DNA of 64,000 nucleotides, from contig OY761556.1 in NCBI GenBank assembly GCA_963664705.1, positions 6,814,785 to 6,878,784 of the forward strand. Reading direction: 5' to 3'. How positions within the stretch are numbered: the first letter of the stretch is position 1; each line of letters starts with the position of its first letter. This DNA is from Acidobacteriota bacterium (GTDB lineage Bacteria > Acidobacteriota > UBA6911). The notes beneath the pieces are model-generated. The model worked only from the letters and a program-made list of their open reading frames with translations. It was not told where the DNA came from and did not search any database. Made by a program: the position numbers and the translations under genes. Shown here piece after piece: positions 689-59,450 of this stretch.

Positions 689-1072
689 AGAGCGCCGCCG
701 TCCCGGCGAATGCCGCATGATATTTGCGCTAGGCCCTGCGACGCAACTGAAGCGACAGGCCCAGAGGGCCGAGAGATCGTAGCCGGGGGTGAAGCGCAGC
801 GAACCCCCGGTAGCGATAAGGGGGAGAGAGAGCCCCGGCCAGGGGCGAAAGATCAGCATTCTGCCGCCCCGTCAGGGCTTGATACAGGACTAATTCAATC
901 CGGGGGTTCGCAAAAAGCGCTCACCCCCGGCTGCGTTCTGGCCGCCCCGCTGGGGCTGGGAAGCCTCGTGCTTCCGGCTTCCTTGGGCAAATAATATGCG
1001 GCATTGGCCGTCCCGGCGGCAAAAGGCATAGCCGCTTGCATGGCGCCGATGCCGCCGGGACGGCCGCGCTCC
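689..1072. repeat. MITE-like GC-rich hairpin-module repeat, copy A (near complete, with terminal inverted repeats)
   Basis: Left end AGCGCCGCCGTCCCGGCGAATGCCGCATGATATTTGC (691-727) is inverted relative to the right end GGGCAAATAATATGCGGCATTGGCCGTCCCGGCGGC (985-1020). Internal modules GTAGCCGGGGGTGAAGCGCAGCGAACCCCCGG, GGCCCAGAGGGCCGAGAG and GGGGCGAAAGA...CTGCCGCCCCGTCAGGGCTTG recur at the other loci listed below. Confidence 0.7.
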
Positions 1073-1083
1073 CAATGTCTGAA

Positions 1084-2355
1084 TCAGAATCCCTTTACCT
1101 GGGGGGCGTAGGACGCCGGCAGGCCAAGGACAAATCGCACATTGGCACCCTCATGGCGGATCGCTTCAATGGCATTGTCGTGTTGCAGCGAAAACCCCGC
1201 GGGAGTTTCCTCGGATTTGGGAATATTCGGATATTTCAGCTGCAGCCAGACCTGCATGGCCTGGTAAAACTCTGCCGCTTCCTCGGGGTTGTCCCATACT
1301 GTATTCACCAGTACGGCATTCTTACCTTCTCCATTTTCGAGCAGCACAACCTGATCTCCGCCCCAGCCCGCGGCCGACCTTCGGGATCGCTCTTCGGACA
1401 GGTGCAGATTCAAAATGAGATTGAGCGAAAACTCGCCCAGCACGTTTTTGTAGGCGACTTTCCAGTCGCTGCCGAGCCTCGGTACGAGTGCTTCCGCGTC
1501 CACCTGCTTGGGTTCATCTTTGGAAACAAAATATTTCTCGGGGTGCAGGATTTGTTCAGTGGATGACGGCAGGTCCTTGTAAATCCCGTTAATAAATTCC
1601 CAGGAGCCATTGCGCGCCCAGGCTTTCTGCATAAAAGCGGCGCCATAGGCGTAGGGGAAGAACATTGATTCCTGCAGGAAAGGCGGGGCGGATTTAAATA
1701 CGGGGAACTGGGATTGCATGCCGGCCAGGAGGGTTCGCATGGCCAAGGCCAAGTCCGGCAATTGGGCGAAGGTCCTCTTAGCCGGCTCCAGTGTGTAGTT
1801 GAGCATCACGACCGTAGCATCGCCTTCCAGCAAGGCCTGGTGCGCCATGGATCTGTCGCCATTGTCAATCTTGCGGTCTTCCTTGAGAACCTTGGCTACC
1901 TCGAAGTACTGGTCTTGCAGTGCATGGTCCAGTTCATGCACCATGACGGGCTTCTGTTCCGCGGCTGAAAGCCAGGATGCGATAAAAAAGGTCTTCTTGT
2001 CCGCGTCGTAGAAGCCCGCGATCTGTTCCGAATACAGCTTCAAGACGAAACCTTTGTAATCGATGGTGGCCGGGATGGCTCCAAGGATTCGAAGCAGGGT
2101 GCCCTCCTTCTGCAACTCGCTTTCGTTGTAATTCTCCCGAACCTGCTCATTTAGGTATTGAGAGATCTCTTCCCGATTCTTGACGCCGCGTTCAATAGGA
2201 GCTTTCGGTTGCAGTCCGCGAATGCGCGCGGTGACCTGTACCATCTCGTCCGCCGTCTTAAGAAGGTCAGCCGGACTGATTTCCTGGACCAGGGCTAAAG
2301 CACTCCCGCTCAGCCCGATGATTATCGCCAAATACAGAGCCCATCGAATGCGCAT
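1084..2355 (-). CDS. secreted zinc metallopeptidase-like protein (HExxH)
   Basis: 423-aa ORF with N-terminal signal-like MRIRWALYLAIIIGLSGSALA and an HExxH motif (VMVHELDHALQDQ). No closer family assignment is possible by eye. Confidence 0.55.
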   Translation of the reverse strand: MRIRWALYLAIIIGLSGSALALVQEISPADLLKTADEMVQVTARIRGLQPKAPIERGVKNREEISQYLNEQVRENYNESELQKEGTLLRILGAIPATIDYKGFVLKLYSEQIAGFYDADKKTFFIASWLSAAEQKPVMVHELDHALQDQYFEVAKVLKEDRKIDNGDRSMAHQALLEGDATVVMLNYTLEPAKRTFAQLPDLALAMRTLLAGMQSQFPVFKSAPPFLQESMFFPYAYGAAFMQKAWARNGSWEFINGIYKDLPSSTEQILHPEKYFVSKDEPKQVDAEALVPRLGSDWKVAYKNVLGEFSLNLILNLHLSEERSRRSAAGWGGDQVVLLENGEGKNAVLVNTVWDNPEEAAEFYQAMQVWLQLKYPNIPKSEETPAGFSLQHDNAIEAIRHEGANVRFVLGLPASYAPQVKGF

Positions 2356-5041: not shown

Positions 5042-6127
5042 ATGTGGCTTGATGTGCTCATTGCGTTGATCAAAGCGCTCTTCTTCCTGTCCTGTGTGCT
5101 GACGCTGACCTCACTGCTGACATGGATGGAACGAAAGCAGTCTGCCGTCATGCAGGACCGGCTTGGTGCCAACCGCGCCAGGATACTGGGCATTCAAGGA
5201 TTCGGGTTGCCGCATATCGTGTCGGATGCCCTGAAGATGTTTTTTAAGGAAGACTATGTGCCGCCCGGCGGGGATCGGATTCTTCACACCGCCGCCCCGA
5301 TGGTTGCGCTTTTCTTCGCCCTCATGACTTTTGCCGCGATACCCTTCGGCGATACCCTTCAGATTGCCGGCCACCGAATTGATTTGCAGGTCCTTCCCTT
5401 GAATGTCGGCCTCCTGTTTGTTTTTGCCATGATGTCGCTCGGCATATACGGTACCTTCCTGGCCGGCTTCGCCTCGGACAATAAATATGCATTTCTCGGA
5501 GGACTGCGCGCTTCCAGCCAGATGATCAGCTACGAGATCACCATGGGAGCCACGCTGGTCGGACTCCTCATGATTTTTGGAAGTCTTGACCTGGCGGAAT
5601 TGAATCGGGCGCAAGGCGGCCTGCTCTGGGGCTGGCTTCCGAAATGGGGGATATTCCTGCAACCGGTCGGGTTCCTGCTGTTCGTCGCCGCCGGAATGGC
5701 CGAAACAAAGCGTATCCCTTTTGATCTGCCGGAAGGAGAATCGGAAATCATCGGGTATTTCGTCGAATACAGCAGTATGAAGTTCGGCGCGTTTTTCATG
5801 GCGGACTTTATCGAGACGATTCTCATTGCGGCGATGATCACCACGCTGTTTTTTGGCGGCTGGCAGATTCCCTATCTGCAGCCGGACGGTTTTCACCTGC
5901 CCTGGGGCTCATTCCACGCACTCCCGCATCTCCTGGTTGCGTTGCTTCAGATGGCAGCCTTTGGCCTCAAGGTTTTCTTCTTCTGCTGGTTCCTGCTGCT
6001 GATCCGGTGGACACTTCCGCGCTTCCGCTATGATCAGCTGATGCGGCTGGGATGGAAGTTCATGCTGCCGATTTCGGTTCTGAATATCTTCGTTACTGCC
6101 GTGATCCTTGTATTGATGAAGAAGTGA
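5042..6127 (+). CDS. nuoH: NADH-quinone oxidoreductase subunit H
   Basis: 361-aa polytopic membrane protein with NuoH/ND1 signatures (LLTWMERKQSAVMQDRLGANRA, MAETKRIPFDLPEGESEIIGYFVEYS). Confidence 0.9.
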   Translation: MWLDVLIALIKALFFLSCVLTLTSLLTWMERKQSAVMQDRLGANRARILGIQGFGLPHIVSDALKMFFKEDYVPPGGDRILHTAAPMVALFFALMTFAAIPFGDTLQIAGHRIDLQVLPLNVGLLFVFAMMSLGIYGTFLAGFASDNKYAFLGGLRASSQMISYEITMGATLVGLLMIFGSLDLAELNRAQGGLLWGWLPKWGIFLQPVGFLLFVAAGMAETKRIPFDLPEGESEIIGYFVEYSSMKFGAFFMADFIETILIAAMITTLFFGGWQIPYLQPDGFHLPWGSFHALPHLLVALLQMAAFGLKVFFFCWFLLLIRWTLPRFRYDQLMRLGWKFMLPISVLNIFVTAVILVLMKK

Positions 6128-6130
6128 TTT

Positions 6131-6164
6131 CGGATTCCAGATTTTAGATTCCGGATTCCAGATG
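6131..6164. repeat. degenerate 7-bp tandem array (GATTCCA-like), the left arm of an inverted pair
   Basis: cgGATTCCAGATTTTAGATTCCGGATTCCAGATGG begins 4 nt after the nuoH stop. Its reverse complement is repeated at 8106-8147. Confidence 0.75.
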
Positions 6165-6291
6165 GCATCTGACCTTGGGCCGGAGACCCGATAGGGAATA
6201 GACAGGGGCGAGCGCAGCGAATCCCCGGCCATTTTCTGGCGCGCCTATGATTGTGCAACATGGCCTGTTCAGGTAAAAAGGAAAAGAAAAA

Positions 6292-6364
6292 CTTGGAGTT
6301 TGGGTGTGGAAACCCGGAAGGAGCCCGGAGGGCGACCGAAGGGTTTCTACTCCCAAACTCCAAG
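6292..6364 (+). other. 73-nt extended hairpin in the 5' non-coding leader of the element
   Basis: CTTGGAGTTTGGG (6292-6304) pairs perfectly with CCCAAACTCCAAG (6352-6364). An inner stem GTGGAAACCC/GGGTTTCTAC has one G-U pair, and the apical part contains a GCCC-GGA-GGGC mini-hairpin. Confidence 0.7.
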
Positions 6365-6409
6365 CGCGGATGCACTCGGATAGCACAGTCCTACATATTG
6401 AAGGCGCCC

Positions 6410-7228
6410 ATGATCAATAACACCAACCTTTCTCACTGGAACAGACTCCAAGCGAAGAGCCTTGACGCTCAATTTGTTAATGAGATGATTACCGGCCTTA
6501 ACTGCTCTCCTTTCGAGGCGGAAGCTATTGTAGAGAAAGTTCATGAGGTTTACGTGCCGCTGTTTCAGACGGCGCAGGGACTTAAGCCGGGTCAGATTCA
6601 AGTGGCCGTGATCGATGCTTCGGTAGCGCCTAATGTGCCACTGGCAAAAGCCAAGCAGAGACTGGTAACCCTGACCCTTCATGCAGGTACCGAAGATATC
6701 GAGACTCGAAAAAGGGGATCCGTACCAGCTCTTCGTCAGAAACGATTGTGCCGCATGTGCCAAGAAGCATTTCAGCAAGGGGGATTGTTGACCTTGGAGG
6801 ATTTGGCCAATCTGTTCAATTGCGGCGTCCGCACTCTGGTGAACGACCTGGCGGCCTTGCGCAAACAGAGCATTGTGCCTCCTCTGCGCTCTACGACCAA
6901 GGATATGGGCCGCGCCATCACCCATCGCCAACTGATTATCACGCTCTGGATGCAAGGGCTTGAGTACTCCGAAATCGCCCGTAAGACCAATCACACCATC
7001 GACTCCGTAGCCAACTACGTGGATAAGTTTAAACGCTGTGCAGCCCTGTTTGTTTCTGGATTTGACGTGGATACAGTTGCTCTGATGGTAAAGCTTTCAA
7101 CGCCTCTGACCAAGGAATTTCAGCGTATCCACTCCGCTTGCCACGGGACTCCTCACCGTCTTCGGGAATTGGAAGATTTCCTCAAAAAAAACCGCATACC
7201 AAGCCTGCGCGGGAGGAAACGGTCATGA
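6410..7228 (+). CDS. element ORF-A: double helix-turn-helix protein, possibly DUF1670-like (from memory, unverified)
   Basis: ATG 6410 is preferred over the TTG 6251 start in the ORF track. HTH-like segments are LLTLEDLANLFNCGVRTLVNDLAALRKQ and GLEYSEIARKTNHTIDSVANYVDKFKR. It is a paralog of ORF-B. Confidence 0.7.
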   Translation: MINNTNLSHWNRLQAKSLDAQFVNEMITGLNCSPFEAEAIVEKVHEVYVPLFQTAQGLKPGQIQVAVIDASVAPNVPLAKAKQRLVTLTLHAGTEDIETRKRGSVPALRQKRLCRMCQEAFQQGGLLTLEDLANLFNCGVRTLVNDLAALRKQSIVPPLRSTTKDMGRAITHRQLIITLWMQGLEYSEIARKTNHTIDSVANYVDKFKRCAALFVSGFDVDTVALMVKLSTPLTKEFQRIHSACHGTPHRLRELEDFLKKNRIPSLRGRKRS

Positions 7229-8010
7229 TTGCCCAATCTGAGGCTCAAAAACAATTCGGCTCTGCGCGGAAGCGCTTCCTGCAGTCTTCTATTGAAAATT
7301 TTCTGGACCAGGAGTTCCCTCGCACCTTCGGACCAGTAATTCGCGAGAAAATGGCAGAAAAGATTGTGGCGCTTGTCGACCAACAACTACCTCCCAAGGA
7401 TCATCTGCGCCCTGGACAGTGTGTTTGGAATGCCGTATCCATTGCGACCCGGCCTGACAGCCCCAACTGTCGTCTTGTCCCCATAGTCTTGACGCTTGTG
7501 GATTCTTCGGATGCCGAGCAACTGGCTCGCGGAACACCCATGTCCAGAATCGCCCAAACGTCCATCGCTCGGATTTGCCGTGAAGCCTTTGAACAAGGAG
7601 CCTTGCTCTCGATGCGCGATATTGGCCTCTTAGTCTGGCGAGATAACGCCCACATCTCGCAGGTCCGGAAAAAGTGGGAGGCTGAACAGCAAACATCGTT
7701 GCCTCATGTCGGAACTATTCAAGATTTCGGCTCATGCATCACTCATAAGTCGGTCATTGTGCGCAAGGTTGTTTATGAAGGGAAAGATCCCCGTCGTGCT
7801 GCAGATGAAACCAAGCACTCGCAGAGAGCCGTCGATCGTTACCTAAAAGACTTTCATCGAGTAAGAACGTGCTTCGAACATATCCAAGATGTTGAATTCG
7901 TTATCAAAACAACAGGTCTATCCAGGCAGCTGGTAAACCAATATGTCAGAATCATCATGGAAAATGAGAAAACGTTTCCTAAAGAGAACTTGACAGGCAA
8001 GATTGCTTAA
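7225..8010 (+). CDS. element ORF-B: paralogous double helix-turn-helix protein
   Basis: GGAGG lies 7 nt upstream of ATG 7225, and an ATGA start/stop overlap with ORF-A suggests translational coupling. It aligns with ORF-A: RPGQ.., CREAFEQGALLSMRDIGLL vs CQEAFQQGGLLTLEDLANL; ITHKSVIV vs ITHRQLII; HSQRAVDRYLKDFHR vs HTIDSVANYVDKFKR. Confidence 0.72.
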   Translation: MIAQSEAQKQFGSARKRFLQSSIENFLDQEFPRTFGPVIREKMAEKIVALVDQQLPPKDHLRPGQCVWNAVSIATRPDSPNCRLVPIVLTLVDSSDAEQLARGTPMSRIAQTSIARICREAFEQGALLSMRDIGLLVWRDNAHISQVRKKWEAEQQTSLPHVGTIQDFGSCITHKSVIVRKVVYEGKDPRRAADETKHSQRAVDRYLKDFHRVRTCFEHIQDVEFVIKTTGLSRQLVNQYVRIIMENEKTFPKENLTGKIA

Positions 8011-8105
8011 ACTTCGGCGCTTTGCTCGCCGTTGGTTTGACTGGTTTGGGAAAAATACAATGCCAATTCCGGCAATGCCGGTAAATAGCGGATCCAGTCG
8101 TGGCA

Positions 8106-8147
8106 CATCCGAAAATCCGGAATCTGGAATCTGGAATCTGGAATTTT
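8106..8147. repeat. 7-bp tandem array (TGGAATC x3-4), the right arm inverted relative to 6131-6164
   Basis: catccgaaaatccGGAATCTGGAATCTGGAATCTGGAATttt abuts the stop codon (8146-8148) of the minus-strand acyl-ligase gene. Confidence 0.75.
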
Positions 8148-22832: not shown

Positions 22833-23205
22833 TGGGAGCACCGGCGCTCCAGGCTAATGTTGCATATTATTTGCCCGAGGAAGCTGGAAGCGCGATGCAT
22901 CTCAGCCCCAGCGGGGCGGTCAGAAAGTAGCCGGGGGTGAAGCGCAGCGAACCCCCGGCCAGCATGAAATTTAAAGGAGCCCCGGAGGGGGCGAAAGATA
23001 TTTCCGTTCATCCACATGATCTAAAGCTGAACATTGGAGAGGGGCTCACCGTTTCTGGCGCCCTGCCAGGGCTCTTTCTCGCGCTTATCTTTACCGGGGG
23101 TTCGCTGCGCTTCGCCCCCGGCTACGATCTTTCGGCCCTCCAGGCCTGGACAAAACCGAAGTTTGAGTTTTGAGACAGCCTCGCCGGCTCTCCCAGTGAA
23201 GAGCT
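22833..23205. repeat. MITE-like hairpin-module repeat, copy B
   Basis: Contains the TIR-like AATGTTGCATATTATTTGCCC, GTAGCCGGGGGTGAAGCGCAGCGAACCCCCGG and its inverse ACCGGGGGTTCGCTGCGCTTCGCCCCCGGCTAC, and GGGGGCGAAAGATATTTCCG. Confidence 0.7.
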
Positions 23206-43908: not shown

Positions 43909-44260
43909 TGAGAATGCTGGGCAGAAAGGCCCATGACTCGGTTGTCGCTAAAACCCTTATTATCCCGTATTATTCCTTTATCAGCAATAACCTACAATAT
44001 TTGTTGATGCGCGGAACAGGAATAGACCAATTGATATAGGCTAACAGTTTCTTGCGGTTTCGTTCACATCACATTTCTTTTAGTTGCCAAAAAGCGTATC
44101 TTCCCTCCGGAATATGCAATAGCCATGGCTGGTAAGCGACGCTGGCCCGAGTACGGTACCCGGAATTGCTATTTGATGCATCTTAGAGGCGATTCTTGGT
44201 TTCGGGAAAATCTGGGGTAAGTAAGAAATTGATGTATAAGTGTTCATTTACTAAAAAGAG

Positions 44261-44347
44261 CGGAGGAAGTAGGATTCGAACCCACGAGGGGGTTACCCCC
44301 CTAACGGTTTTCAAGACCGCCGCCATCGACCACTCGGCCATTCCTCC
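44261..44347 (-). tRNA. tRNA-Ser (anticodon UGA)
   Basis: The reverse complement GGAGGAATGGCCGAGTGGTCGATGGCGGCGGTCTTGAAAACCGTTAGGGGGGTAACCCCCTCGTGGGTTCGAATCCTACTTCCTCCG has a 7-bp acceptor stem (GGAGGAA/TTCCTCC), anticodon loop CTTGAAA, a long variable arm, and a GGTTCGAATCC T-arm. CCA is not encoded. Confidence 0.9.
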
Positions 44348-47767: not shown

Positions 47768-48066
47768 ACTGGGAGCGAAAGATATTTCCGCTCCTCCCCA
47801 TGACCTAAAGTTGAACATTGGAGAGGGGTTCACCGTTTCTATCGCCCCGCCAGGGCTCTTTCCCGCGCTTATCTCTACCGGGGGTTCGCTTCGCTTCACC
47901 CCCGGCTACTTTCTGACCGCCCCTTCGGGGCTGATTTGATGGAGATTCCAAGTTCCTCGGGCAAATAGTATGCGGCATCAGCCGGGACGGCGGTGCTCCC
48001 AGCGCTCTCGTCAAGCCACAGGTTTTTCCACTCGGCTTTGCTGGTGGAGAAGCTCACTCCCGGCTG
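47768..48066. repeat. MITE-like hairpin-module repeat, copy C (left flank of element copy 2)
   Basis: Contains GGGAGCGAAAGATATTTCCG, ACCGGGGGTTCGCTTCGCTTCACCCCCGGCTAC and the TIR-like CGGGCAAATAGTATGCGGCATCAGCCGGGACGGCGG. Confidence 0.7.
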
Positions 48067-48244
48067 TTTTCTGGCGCGCCTATGATTGTGCAACATGGCC
48101 TGTTCAGGTAAAAAGGAAAAGAAAAACTTGGAGTTTGGGTGTGGAAACCCGGAAGGAGCCCGGAGGGCGACCGAAGGGTTTCTACTCCCAAACTCCAAGC
48201 GCGGATGCACTCGGATAGCACAGTCCTACATATTGAAGGCGCCC

Positions 48245-49063
48245 ATGATCAATAACACCAACCTTTCTCACTGGAACAGACTCCAAGCGAAGAGCCTTGA
48301 CGCTCAATTTGTTAATGAGATGATTACCGGCCTTAACTGCTCTCCTTTCGAGGCGGAAGCTATTGTAGAGAAAGTTCATGAGGTTTACGTGCCGCTGTTT
48401 CAGACGGCGCAGGGACTTAAGCCGGGTCAGATTCAAGTGGCCGTGATCGATGCTTCGGTAGCGCCTAATGTGCCACTGGCAAAAGCCAAGCAGAGACTGG
48501 TAACCCTGACCCTTCATGCAGGTACCGAAGATATCGAGACTCGAAAAAGGGGATCCGTACCAGCTCTTCGTCAGAAACGATTGTGCCGCATGTGCCAAGA
48601 AGCATTTCAGCAAGGGGGATTGTTGACCTTGGAGGATTTGGCCAATCTGTTCAATTGCGGCGTCCGCACTCTGGTGAACGACCTGGCGGCCTTGCGCAAA
48701 CAGAGCATTGTGCCTCCTCTGCGCTCTACGACCAAGGATATGGGCCGCGCCATCACCCATCGCCAACTGATTATCACGCTCTGGATGCAAGGGCTTGAGT
48801 ACTCCGAAATCGCCCGTAAGACCAATCACACCATCGACTCCGTAGCCAACTACGTGGATAAGTTTAAACGCTGTGCAGCCCTGTTTGTTTCTGGATTTGA
48901 CGTGGATACAGTTGCTCTGATGGTAAAGCTTTCAACGCCTCTGACCAAGGAATTTCAGCGTATCCACTCCGCTTGCCACGGGACTCCTCACCGTCTTCGG
49001 GAATTGGAAGATTTCCTCAAAAAAAACCGCATACCAAGCCTGCGCGGGAGGAAACGGTCATGA
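48245..49063 (+). CDS. element ORF-A (copy 2)
   Basis: Translation is identical to 6410-7228. Confidence 0.7.
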   Translation: MINNTNLSHWNRLQAKSLDAQFVNEMITGLNCSPFEAEAIVEKVHEVYVPLFQTAQGLKPGQIQVAVIDASVAPNVPLAKAKQRLVTLTLHAGTEDIETRKRGSVPALRQKRLCRMCQEAFQQGGLLTLEDLANLFNCGVRTLVNDLAALRKQSIVPPLRSTTKDMGRAITHRQLIITLWMQGLEYSEIARKTNHTIDSVANYVDKFKRCAALFVSGFDVDTVALMVKLSTPLTKEFQRIHSACHGTPHRLRELEDFLKKNRIPSLRGRKRS

Positions 49064-49845
49064 TTGCCCAATCTGAGGCTCAAAAACAATTCGGCTCTGC
49101 GCGGAAGCGCTTCCTGCAGTCTTCTATTGAAAATTTTCTGGACCAGGAGTTCCCTCGCACCTTCGGACCAGTAATTCGCGAGAAAATGGCAGAAAAGATT
49201 GTGGCGCTTGTCGACCAACAACTACCTCCCAAGGATCATCTGCGCCCTGGACAGTGTGTTTGGAATGCCGTATCCATTGCGACCCGGCCTGACAGCCCCA
49301 ACTGTCGTCTTGTCCCCATAGTCTTGACGCTTGTGGATTCTTCGGATGCCGAGCAACTGGCTCGCGGAACACCCATGTCCAGAATCGCCCAAACGTCCAT
49401 CGCTCGGATTTGCCGTGAAGCCTTTGAACAAGGAGCCTTGCTCTCGATGCGCGATATTGGCCTCTTAGTCTGGCGAGATAACGCCCACATCTCGCAGGTC
49501 CGGAAAAAGTGGGAGGCTGAACAGCAAACATCGTTGCCTCATGTCGGAACTATTCAAGATTTCGGCTCATGCATCACTCATAAGTCGGTCATTGTGCGCA
49601 AGGTTGTTTATGAAGGGAAAGATCCCCGTCGTGCTGCAGATGAAACCAAGCACTCGCAGAGAGCCGTCGATCGTTACCTAAAAGACTTTCATCGAGTAAG
49701 AACGTGCTTCGAACATATCCAAGATGTTGAATTCGTTATCAAAACAACAGGTCTATCCAGGCAGCTGGTAAACCAATATGTCAGAATCATCATGGAAAAT
49801 GAGAAAACGTTTCCTAAAGAGAACTTGACAGGCAAGATTGCTTAA
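49060..49845 (+). CDS. element ORF-B (copy 2)
   Basis: Translation is identical to 7225-8010. Confidence 0.72.
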   Translation: MIAQSEAQKQFGSARKRFLQSSIENFLDQEFPRTFGPVIREKMAEKIVALVDQQLPPKDHLRPGQCVWNAVSIATRPDSPNCRLVPIVLTLVDSSDAEQLARGTPMSRIAQTSIARICREAFEQGALLSMRDIGLLVWRDNAHISQVRKKWEAEQQTSLPHVGTIQDFGSCITHKSVIVRKVVYEGKDPRRAADETKHSQRAVDRYLKDFHRVRTCFEHIQDVEFVIKTTGLSRQLVNQYVRIIMENEKTFPKENLTGKIA

Positions 49846-49857
49846 ACTCCGGCGCTT

Positions 49858-50028
49858 AGTGCAGATGGAACAAAGATCCAGCGCCGGAGGCGCGAAAGAT
49901 AGTAGCCCCGGGCGAGCTTGCGAGCCCGGGGTTAAATTAGGGGTTCAAAGAGCCCTGCAAGGGCGAAAGAACGGCCATGGCAAAAAGGTAAATGGCCTTG
50001 GGAGCGACGACGGCGCCCCCAGTGGTGC
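49858..50028. repeat. MITE-like hairpin-module repeat, copy D (right flank of element copy 2)
   Basis: GGAACAAAGATCCAGCGCCGGAGGCGCGAAAGATAGTAGCC...AGCCCTGCAAGGGCGAAAGAACGG is colinear with 59280-59400. Confidence 0.7.
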
Positions 50029-55843: not shown

Positions 55844-55971
55844 GTTTTTCCTCTGCCTGACGCCCATGAAAATAGCGTCAATAGATCTTGGACTTCTTGG
55901 ATATACCGCATGGATACTGATGGCGCGAGTGTAGCATCGAAGGACCATTCGCGGGTAAGCATTTTACTGCA

Positions 55972-56210
55972 GAGCGCCGCCGTCCCGGCTAATGCTGCAT
56001 GATAATTGTTCTGAGCTCTGCGATGCCAGCGAGGCAACAGGCCCGGAGGGCCGAAAGCGAGTAGCCAGGGGTGAAGCGCAGCGAACCCCTGGGAAGATAA
56101 GTGCGAAAAAGAGCCCTGAAAGGGCGAAAGATCGGAATTCTGCCGCCCCTTCAGGGCTTGTTACTGATTTAATCCAATCCAGGGGTTCGCTACTCTCACC
56201 CCTGGCTGAT
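55972..56210. repeat. MITE-like hairpin-module repeat, copy E (left flank of the IS110-type element)
   Basis: Colinear with copy A: GAGCGCCGCCGTCCCGGCTAATGCTGCATGATAATTG..., GGCCCGGAGGGCCGAAAGCGAGTAGCCAGGGGTGAAGCGCAGCGAACCCCTGG, AGCCCTGAAAGGGCGAAAGA...CTGCCGCCCCTTCAGGGCTTG. Confidence 0.75.
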
Positions 56211-57742: not shown

Positions 57743-57845
57743 TATGTCTACTTGCTTTCGGCCCTCCGGGCCTGTTGCTCCACTCGCGTCGCAAGGCTCA
57801 GAACAATTCATTGGCGGCATTAACCGTCCCGGTGGGCACCCGCGA
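57743..57845. repeat. MITE-like hairpin-module repeat, copy F (right flank of the IS110-type element, inverted orientation)
   Basis: Its reverse complement reads ...CCGGGACGGTTAATGCCGCCAATGAATTGTTCTGAGCC...CAACAGGCCCGGAGGGCCGAAAGCAAGTAG, which matches the start of copies A and E. Confidence 0.7.
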
Positions 57846-59086: not shown

Positions 59087-59450
59087 CCTATGCGGCAACC
59101 AGAAGGGGCAAGTGAATTTGGGAGCGCTGCGCTGTGGAAGCGGCTGCGCTCTTGCCGGCGTCTTGCCCGCTTTTTTTTCGGCGTTTTTCTTTCGGTCCTT
59201 CAGGGCTCTTTGAGCTCCGAATGCAACCCCGGGCTCACAAGCTCGCCCAGGGCTGCTAGCTTTTGCGCCTTCGGCGCTTGGTTTAGGTGGAACAAAAATC
59301 CAGGCCCGGAGGGCCGAAAGCAAGTAGCCAGGGGTGAGCGGAGCGAACCCCTGGTAGAATAGTTGGAAAAACAGGAGCCCTGAAGGGGCGAAAGAACGGC
59401 AATTGCAAAAAAGTAAATTGCATTGTGCCAGACGGCTGCGCTCCCAGTGC
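59087..59450. repeat. MITE-like hairpin-module repeat, copy G (the uninterrupted 'empty-site' homolog of the copy-2 insertion locus)
   Basis: Contains the intact hairpin GCGCC-TTC-GGCGC (59265-59277), followed by GGAACAAAAATCCAGGCCCGGAGGGCCGAAAGCAAGTAGCCAGGGGTGAGCGGAGCGAACCCCTGG and AGCCCTGAAGGGGCGAAAGAACGG. Confidence 0.75.

Follow-up and report, generated by a model that had tools for sequence, protein, structure and literature searches.

A two-gene DUF1670 element in Acidobacteriota, apparently an insertion sequence of an undescribed family that enters the loop of a small hairpin

The 64,000-nucleotide stretch of DNA analysed here (the window; contig OY761556.1 of assembly GCA_963664705.1, positions 6,814,785 to 6,878,784) comes from an Acidobacteriota bacterium of the lineage UBA6911 and contains two copies of a compact element of ∼1.77 kb, comprising two coupled open reading frames (ORF-A and ORF-B) of the Pfam family DUF1670 behind a ∼160-nt structured leader, with imperfect inverted repeats of ∼25 bp at its termini. 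Based on comparison with related sequences, the element apparently represents a genuine insertion-sequence family that is undescribed. Its insertion site is a hairpin with a 5-bp GC stem (GCGCC/GGCGC at copy 1 of the window), whose 3-nt loop it interrupts. We infer a role in mobility for both DUF1670 genes, so that the element would carry only the genes for its own movement, and assign a probability of about 0.6 to the full model of an autonomous insertion sequence.

The two copies were first noticed by a model working from the letters and open reading frames alone (the sequence-only reading), which described two blocks, 6232-8022 and 48067-49857, matching base for base at a constant offset of +41835 and losing similarity abruptly on either side. 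The offset is as described and ungapped identity directly outside the blocks falls to ∼25%; the match itself is just short of complete, at 1790 of 1791 positions, with a sole mismatch at position 8014 (T in copy 1, C in copy 2). The block limits do not stand as the ends of the element. A nucleotide comparison of ∼110 related loci (10 from genomes or metagenome-assembled genomes [MAGs], 80 from metagenomes and 19 further loci) has conservation beginning after a T with ATGATTGTGCAAT and stopping with TTGCCTAAA, immediately before CT, which redraws the core as 6247-8011. The element proper consists of this core (ATGATTGTGCAA...GCTTAAA) plus one copy of the dinucleotide CT. By this comparison the identical bases beyond the core (6232-6246 and 8015-8022) are target sequence rather than element, alike at both sites because both are units of one repeat family, and the mismatch at 8014 is a loop base of the target outside the element. 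The wider limits arose because the copies of the target repeat at the two sites resemble each other. At copy 2 the direct repeats CT lie at 48080-48081 and 49847-49848 and the target arms at 48076-48080 and 49851-49855, with CC as the remainder of the loop. The coordinates of these and other features are collected in Table 1.

Mobility is well supported by sequence comparison, and the earlier proposal of a discrete mobile unit gains from its sharp ends, the 2-nt flanking repeat, varied flanks and syntenic relatives without the element. Both window copies have unrelated flanks, each situated between convergent genes, and in other genomes and metagenomes we found 55 distinct left and 84 distinct right flanks. 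An identical ORF-B protein occurs with at least three left and at least five right flanks in each of two lineages (P0093 and P0020), and single populations have identical proteins at several sites. Flank pairs taken from short metagenome contigs do not always represent one site, and contigs L095-L113 join one left flank to different right flanks and the reverse, a sign of chimeric assembly across near-identical copies. Homologues of ORF-B number in the hundreds at 70-88% identity; the contigs that carry them are nearly all 1-2.6 kb long, close in size to the element itself, consistent with a repeat that breaks assemblies. At the locus of copy 1, three syntenic relatives (L114, L116 and L117; NuoH at least 90% identical) retain the gene order of the window, with nuoG-nuoH followed by an opposite-strand AMP-binding/acyltransferase gene and ccmH, with spacers of 307, 267 and 267 nt, respectively, that lack a DUF1670 element; the window spacer is 2018 nt, or 249 + 1769. 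For the genes on either side of copy 2, no close relatives are recorded.

The 50 complete elements share a common plan of a ∼160-nt leader, an ORF-A of 272 aa, a 4-nt overlap, an ORF-B of ∼255 aa and ∼20 nt to the right end, and both genes are intact in 48 of them. More distant elements, with ORF-B identities to that of the window of 62-58% (L088-L090), 49% (L007, L009) and 35% (L091-L093), likewise have two overlapping DUF1670 genes between inverted repeats. The MAGs of close relatives are titled Syntrophobacteraceae, Thiobacillaceae, Acidimicrobiia, Acidobacteria and others, assignments that need care for short contigs. Searches of PLSDB and IMG/VR gave no match pointing to a plasmid or phage origin, and the window contains no extra copies, solo ends or miniature derivatives.

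Insertion is precise. In 43 of 49 loci, among them all eight with a dinucleotide other than CT (TT seven times, GT once), the two bases preceding ATGATT are the same as the two following TAAA; this flanking NT could have arisen by duplication of 2 bp of target or could be a shared crossover core of 2 nt. The 5 nt to the left of the element and the 5 nt lying 2 nt past its right end are reverse complements, with five or more consecutive base pairs in 30 of 45 loci. These arms can be identified as target sequence because they vary between loci in compensatory fashion (GCCCC/GGGGC, GCGCC/GGCGC, GTCCC/GGGAC, CACCC/GGGTG, TCCCC/GGGGA, GCTCC/GGAGC, GCTCT/AGAGC, GCCCT/AGGGC, GCCCG/CGGGC and CCTCC/GGAGG). 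The consensus target derived from all distinct flanks is (C)GCCC-CT/NC-GGGGC(T), where the slash marks the point of insertion. Many loci also have CCGGCT or CGGGCT and a larger hairpin at a fixed distance before the small hairpin; of 49 loci, 15 have the repeat motif upstream of the left junction, and only 1 of 65 has its mirror image at the right, indicating that insertion occurs in one orientation.

The disrupted repeat corresponds to Acido-Lenti-1 (Rfam RF01687), published as a candidate small RNA (sRNA) of Acidobacteria and Lentisphaerae (PMC2864571). Acido-Lenti-1 is laid out as a hairpin with an 8-bp stem, a linker and a 5-bp stem with a 3-nt loop, and in the RF01687 model the element enters at the triloop of the second hairpin, which is the typical target across loci. 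At copy 1 the left part of the unit retains hairpin 1 (GGGGC...CCCC), the linker CGGCCATTTTCTGGC, the left arm GCGCC of hairpin 2 (6241-6245) and T at 6246. The window contains six unoccupied units in which the small hairpin is intact (e.g., GCCCC-TTC-GGGGC at ∼47920); only the one at 49880-49931 exceeds the RF01687 gathering score of 37, three further units scoring 24-33 bits. The target repeat lies in intergenic DNA, and Acido-Lenti-1 looks like a dispersed genomic repeat of the repetitive extragenic palindromic (REP) kind, rather than or besides an sRNA gene. Repeats resembling REPs and bacterial interspersed mosaic elements, in direct and inverted pairs, are present in the window at 689-1078, 22848-23150, 47771-47998, 49880-50024, 55971-56207, 57745-57835 and 59187-59449.

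The subterminal inverted repeats seen in the sequence-only reading are real, although imperfect, reading ATGATTGT-GCAATATGGCGTGTTCAGG at the left end and CTTGACAGGCAAAATTGC-CTAAA at the right, and both ends include a palindromic box, GCAA..TTGC. The left end together with the preceding T reads TATGAT, a −10-like hexamer, in all 36 readable distinct left ends. A −35-like TTGACA is found in 40 of the 50 distinct right ends, and the spacing from this position to the terminal T is 17 nt in 49 of the 50. Abutting right and left ends with one copy of the dinucleotide between them produces TTGACA-17-TATGAT, a sigma-70-type promoter, and no comparable strong promoter is present upstream of ORF-A in the integrated copy. 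This suggests a circular intermediate, as a promoter at the end-to-end junction is a classic mark of elements that move through circles or junctions (IS3, IS30, IS256 and IS110). The 35%-identical subfamily (L091, L093) has different termini, defined by two to three sequences, yet a TTGACT-16-TATAGT junction can be read from them.

The leader contains a long hairpin in which 98% of cells are paired and compensatory double changes occur in all 14 stem pairs (covariation score 0.574, as opposed to 0.136 shuffled and at most 0.126 slid). G-U pairs make up 8 of 787 cells, pointing to a structure that would be read as DNA or on both strands and not solely as RNA. The near-invariant apical motif, whose mini-hairpin resembles the target hairpin, is bracketed in most relatives by two direct CTGGAAGG repeats, and the motif GAGCCCGNAGGGCGA occurs in 51 loci, including L088 and L089 (ORF-B 59-62% identical to that of the window). 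The leader hairpin is absent from the 49%- and 35%-identical subfamilies. A variant found in L003 (3064-3188) and L051 has lost 22 nt from the apex of the hairpin, and with them the invariant motif, but retains both ORFs intact; its right flank is without a complementary arm.

Just before the ORF-A ribosome-binding site (position ∼130-145 of the element) most elements have TGCACAATCA, the complement of the left tip TGATTGTGCA, and the right tip has no complementary counterpart segment. The minimum-free-energy fold pairs the 6382-6407 segment with the left tip and the left target arm. In 18 of 50 elements the 22 nt that precede the ORF-A ATG include the reverse complement of the 5 nt of left flank, compared with 8.1 ± 2.2 in permuted sets (0 of 5000 reached 18); among elements with non-consensus flanks 11 of 26 do so, against a background of 10%. 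We read this pairing as a means by which read-through transcripts fold back and inhibit their own translation, and regard a role as target guide as the weaker alternative.

The element matches no known RNA in Rfam at E values up to 1, and its other frames have no Pfam match and no hidden gene. Stop-free antisense frames of ∼280 codons do lie opposite ORF-A (extending through the leader to the left end) and ORF-B in 46 of 48 elements, for example in L013, L015 and L024 (∼2-860 and ∼820-1670, minus strand) and at 6347-6994 (−) of the window. We rejected these as genes and regard them as shadow ORFs, because TTA, CTA and TCA are used at 1.1% per codon, as in host genes, and no Pfam match was obtained. 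Codon usage accounts only partly for the openness of the antisense frame across the noncoding leader.

ORF-A and ORF-B are 27% identical paralogues coupled by an ATGA in which the stop of the former overlaps the start of the latter, and the sequence-only reading was right both on this arrangement and in likening the proteins to the DUF1670 family (PF07900; E 4e-40 and 1e-43). The two ORFs pass the Pfam gathering threshold of 25 bits for this family, which comprises 730 clusters at 50% identity and has no assigned function. Pairwise dN/dS values of 0.074 for ORF-A and 0.094 for ORF-B, at a dS of ∼1.1, indicate that both are under strong purifying selection. Both ORFs also match helix-turn-helix (HTH) models weakly, and weak Pfam hits were obtained to HTH_23, HTH_28 and HTH_29. 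No transposase, recombinase or nuclease family matches either ORF in Pfam, NCBIfam (including its models of insertion-sequence families), PHROGs or PADLOC, and searches of the PDB by sequence and by family profile returned no match but one designed HTH repeat protein. The statement, made initially by eye, that no known transposase or recombinase is encoded thus holds in profile searches of Pfam, NCBIfam, PHROGs, PADLOC and the PDB, and in Foldseek. Considered by class, DDE enzymes are represented neither by an RNase-H fold (ORF-B, Foldseek) nor by a Pfam or NCBIfam transposase model (both ORFs), serine and tyrosine recombinase domains have no Pfam, NCBIfam or PDB sequence match and a best Foldseek recombinase at E 1.1, and the DEDD, HUH and PD-(D/E)XK folds are not visible in the ORF-B model. 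That model, an AlphaFold2 prediction made as the sequence-only reading had proposed (52 sequences; mean confidence score, pLDDT, of 83.7), consists of helices apart from a single long beta-hairpin (residues 65-90) and revealed no nuclease or recombinase fold.

Across 77 diverse family members G169, H174, H198 and Y206 are invariant (ORF-B numbering here and below), and G64, L89, R116, A121, Q124, L128, P160, D167, K175 and Y240 are nearly so. The invariant His and Tyr residues are in no known recombinase arrangement; H174, H198 and Y206, and among the near-invariant positions D167, K175 and R116, are candidate catalytic residues. Natural fusions of two to four DUF1670 modules exist with no other catalytic domain, indicating that the modules work together, and one DUF1670 protein has a C-terminal DnaG-type CHC2 zinc finger; the proteins concerned are P0172, P0175 and P0192 (930-952 aa), P0187 and P0218 (532-544 aa) and P0165 (400 aa).

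On this sequence evidence we infer that the DUF1670 pair is catalytic. Of the two roles that the sequence-only reading offered for it, transposase and cargo, the former is favored by the junction promoter, by an architecture that stays constant and by strong purifying selection. That ORF-A and ORF-B constitute an unrecognised class of transposase or recombinase, unrelated to the DDE, DEDD, HUH, serine, tyrosine and Cas1 enzymes, is a tentative proposal that we would not yet back against its alternatives. Its full form is offered with the same reserve: HTH modules and a new N-terminal beta-arm domain would recognise a hairpin by its structure and insert with single-nucleotide precision into the loop, possibly on single-stranded DNA.

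We envisage the following pathway. The two proteins, as arrays of HTH modules with a novel N-terminal domain containing the long beta-hairpin, would assemble into a hetero-oligomer with two activities, binding of the GCAA..TTGC boxes in the two ends and recognition of the target hairpin in extruded or single-stranded form. Structural recognition of the hairpin is suggested by the variation of the stem sequence with preservation of pairing and by the near absence of G-T/G-U pairs. The two ends would meet, probably in a circle that is excised or copied out and has the predicted junction ...GATTGCTTAAA-CT-ATGATTGTGCAAC..., and the joined ends would assemble the sigma-70 promoter TTGACA-17 nt-TATGAT reading into the leader, driving expression of both proteins. 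The junction would then recombine with a target loop across a 2-nt stagger or core, the predicted empty sites being GGCGCGCCTTCGGCGC at locus 1 and GGCGCGCCTCCGGCGC at locus 2. Once integrated, a copy would be without the junction promoter, and in read-through transcripts the target arm and left tip could pair with the region around the ORF-A ribosome-binding site, which would keep expression low.

Several observations weigh against an autonomous insertion sequence moved by its own proteins. A catalytic fold or motif was not found, by model for ORF-B and by sequence only for ORF-A. Foldseek searches with the ORF-B model against the PDB and BFVD gave nothing at E<0.001, the best being DtxR/MntR-type HTH repressors at E 0.27, and the N-terminal domain of ORF-B modelled alone (pLDDT 84.2) has no neighbor in the PDB, with all E values above 1. 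Neither viral contigs nor the 117 loci contain a circle- or tandem-junction sequence. At the copy 1 locus the spacers of the relatives are too diverged to align, and no empty site could be reconstructed at base level. The two window copies alone do not separate recent transposition from gene conversion, and the 64-kb window is part of a 6.9-Mb genome in which a trans-acting transposase could sit elsewhere.

In an alternative reading the element is mobile and the DUF1670 proteins supply no more than DNA-binding specificity or architecture, while strand cleavage and joining fall to an enzyme of the host or to a transposase that is encoded elsewhere and works in trans. Candidates would be a REP-associated Y1 transposase or a structure-specific nuclease or recombinase with hairpins or cruciforms as substrate. 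The composition of the proteins as HTH modules with no recognisable catalytic fold fits this division of labor, as does the REP-like nature of the target hairpin, given that REP-type repeats in other bacteria are described as having their own dedicated transposases (PMC3333891, PMC2817692). However, the same two genes and nothing else recur in MAGs of several phyla, all of which would need the shared partner. The integrity of both ORFs in 48 of the 50 complete elements and dN/dS below 0.1 are unlike typical non-autonomous derivatives, the junction promoter is positioned to drive precisely ORF-A and ORF-B, and the element does not end in REP-like hairpins such as Y1 enzymes recognise. We consider this alternative unlikely. 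A variant in which the leader, as RNA or single-stranded DNA, helps to choose the target by base pairing, in the manner of IS200/IS605 guides or IS110 bridge RNAs, draws on the excess of pentamer matches before the ORF-A ATG, the left-tip complement at a conserved position and the strongly structured, conserved leader hairpin. It is improbable, as the match fails in most elements (P0093 is always in GCCCT/AGGGC yet has no AGGGC before the ATG), the right end is without a counterpart, the invariant apical motif does not track the target, and the hairpin is missing from the more distant subfamilies. The region also doubles as a G-rich Shine-Dalgarno sequence, and fold-back inhibition of translation explains the pairing equally well.

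The possibility that the unit is not mobile at all, reflecting instead a segmental duplication, an assembly artefact or a gene-conversion tract with DUF1670 proteins as ordinary cellular regulators, has in its favor that the window holds just two copies and that they are identical, as gene conversion could produce. Segmental duplication and assembly artefact, which the sequence-only reading had named as grounds for abandoning its proposal, were rejected because the flanks differ and identity stops at the boundary between element and target. The flanks are unrelated beyond the short target repeat, a unit with the same ends occupies dozens of sites in other genomes and metagenomes, syntenic relatives are without it, and both copies break one repeat family at the same position with a 2-nt flanking repeat each. 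A nonmobile origin is in our view barely credible.

Table 1. Features of the DUF1670 element and its target repeat (positions in the window).
Feature	Position	Strand	Basis or details
Element copy 1, core	6247..8011	+	1765 bp; ends are where conservation stops in ∼110 related loci
Element copy 2, core	48082..49846	+	100% identical to copy 1 core
ORF-A, DUF1670, 272 aa	6410..7228	+	Pfam PF07900 E 4.4e-40, 137.8 bits, model 15-220 of 220
ORF-B, DUF1670, 261 aa	7225..8010	+	Pfam PF07900 E 1.2e-43, 149.5 bits, model 4-220 of 220
Left terminal inverted repeat ATGATTGTGCAACATGGCCTGTTCAGG	6247..6273	+	Repeat alignment across loci
Right terminal inverted repeat CTTGACAGGCAAGATTGCTTAAA	7989..8011	+	Holds TTGACA (7990-7995) and GCAA..TTGC palindrome
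Long leader hairpin, covarying stem	6292..6364	+	Covariation, fold z-score -5.2
Apical motif GGAGCCCGGAGGGCGAC, near-invariant	6320..6336	+	Mini-hairpin GCCC-GNA-GGGC inside
Segment before ribosome-binding site	6382..6407	+	Complementary to left tip; GGCGC (6403-6407) complementary to left target arm GCGCC
Left part of disrupted Acido-Lenti-1/REP-like unit	6205..6246	+	Layout as in unoccupied window units and Rfam RF01687 consensus
Left direct repeat CT	6245..6246	.	Dinucleotide comparison across loci
Right direct repeat CT	8012..8013	.	Dinucleotide comparison across loci
Remainder of target hairpin	8014..8021	+	Loop TC (8014-8015), right arm GGCGC (8016-8020), T
Unoccupied Acido-Lenti-1 unit	47878..47932	+	RF01687 32.8 bits, E 0.0012; second hairpin GCCCC-TTC-GGGGC intact
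Unoccupied Acido-Lenti-1 unit, inverted	49880..49931	-	RF01687 44.8 bits; second hairpin GCGCC-TCC-GGCGC; 25 nt right of copy 2

Other features were noted in and around the two loci. Inverted arrays of a tandem 7-nt unit (GGAATCT/AGATTCC; window 6127-6157 and 8114-8144) bracket the intergenic region that contains copy 1, and analogous arrays (GATTCGA/TCGAATC) are found at corresponding places in L114 (6081-6387); they may form a conserved long-range hairpin between the convergent genes. A DDE_Tnp_1 transposase gene in L114 (10999-11080), ∼5 kb from the syntenic locus, is unrelated to the DUF1670 element. The only tRNA gene of the window is a tRNA-Ser (anticodon TGA) at 44260-44347 (−). Two pairs of inverted repeats (39361-39443/54771-54853 and 39721-39789/54434-54502), 69-83 nt in length, 72-76% complementary and 15 kb apart, are probably diverged paralogous genes in opposite orientation.

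The element is compact, widespread and active-looking, and combines two proteins without a known catalytic fold with insertion that is precise to the base pair, fixed in orientation and directed to a small hairpin loop. DUF1670, a domain without an assigned function, gains a testable role, and the mobile-element reading explains the occurrence of DUF1670 genes on thousands of metagenome contigs of element size. Acido-Lenti-1, an Rfam candidate sRNA, behaves as a REP-like repeat and a landing pad for an insertion sequence. New classes of transposase are rare and each has brought new biology and tools. If the pair does represent such a class, PF07900 as a whole, including its archaeal founders, would mark a large overlooked superfamily of mobile elements, and if the pair is sufficient for movement, it would offer new recombination chemistry together with a structure-guided choice of safe intergenic sites.

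A literature search for DUF1670, PF07900, IPR012872, the terminal sequence and descriptive terms found no mention in the library searched, and the link between DUF1670 and a mobile element is, as far as we found, new. Insertion sequences that target REPs belong to the IS3, IS110, IS4, IS256 and IS5 families, all with recognised transposases (PMC1525189). The closest in behavior to the DUF1670 element are the IS110/IS1111 family and the REP hunters of the IS3 type such as IS1397.

Members of IS110/IS1111 (e.g., IS621, ISPpu9, ISPpu10 and ISPa11) insert site- and orientation-specifically into REP-type palindromes (PMC1525189). They resemble the present element in this oriented insertion at a fixed point of a palindrome and in the very short repeat. 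IS110/IS1111 elements generate no long target duplication and share a short core dinucleotide with the target (CT in IS621), and they form a circular intermediate with a junction promoter and have a structured noncoding region beside the transposase gene. Their transposases, in contrast, have a DEDD (RuvC-like) domain and Transposase_20, neither of which was detected in ORF-A or ORF-B, and they mostly lack the terminal inverted repeats that the DUF1670 element possesses. Compared with IS110 bridge RNAs, the DUF1670 leader is without variable internal guide loops or an Rfam match, its pentamers showing a weak statistical link to the target.

The REP hunters of the IS3 family (IS1397, ISKpn1 and ISPsy8) also insert at a fixed point of the REP palindrome with a short direct repeat (PMC1525189). 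Like the DUF1670 element they have terminal inverted repeats and two ORFs that overlap in part, with the downstream one in −1 phase. Circles of IS3-family elements carry junction promoters. They differ in that OrfB of IS3 elements is a DDE (rve) transposase and their repeat is 3-4 bp; the present element encodes DUF1670 HTH proteins in both ORFs and has a 2-nt repeat, and its ORFs overlap at a stop/start ATGA instead of a frameshift site. The 2-bp flanking repeat and tandem HTH modules in a DNA-binding region recall IS630/Tc1-mariner elements, which have a single ORF with a DDE/D domain and duplicate TA; the DUF1670 element has no DDE domain and its NT lies inside a hairpin loop. Finally, DNA hairpins are central to IS200/IS605 and the REP-associated Y1 transposases as they are here, where an internal segment can pair with the left flank and the few G-T pairs hint at single-stranded DNA. 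The DUF1670 element differs from these in having no HUH/Y1 protein, inverted-repeat ends and a 2-nt repeat, and in using the hairpin as the target rather than as the end of the element.

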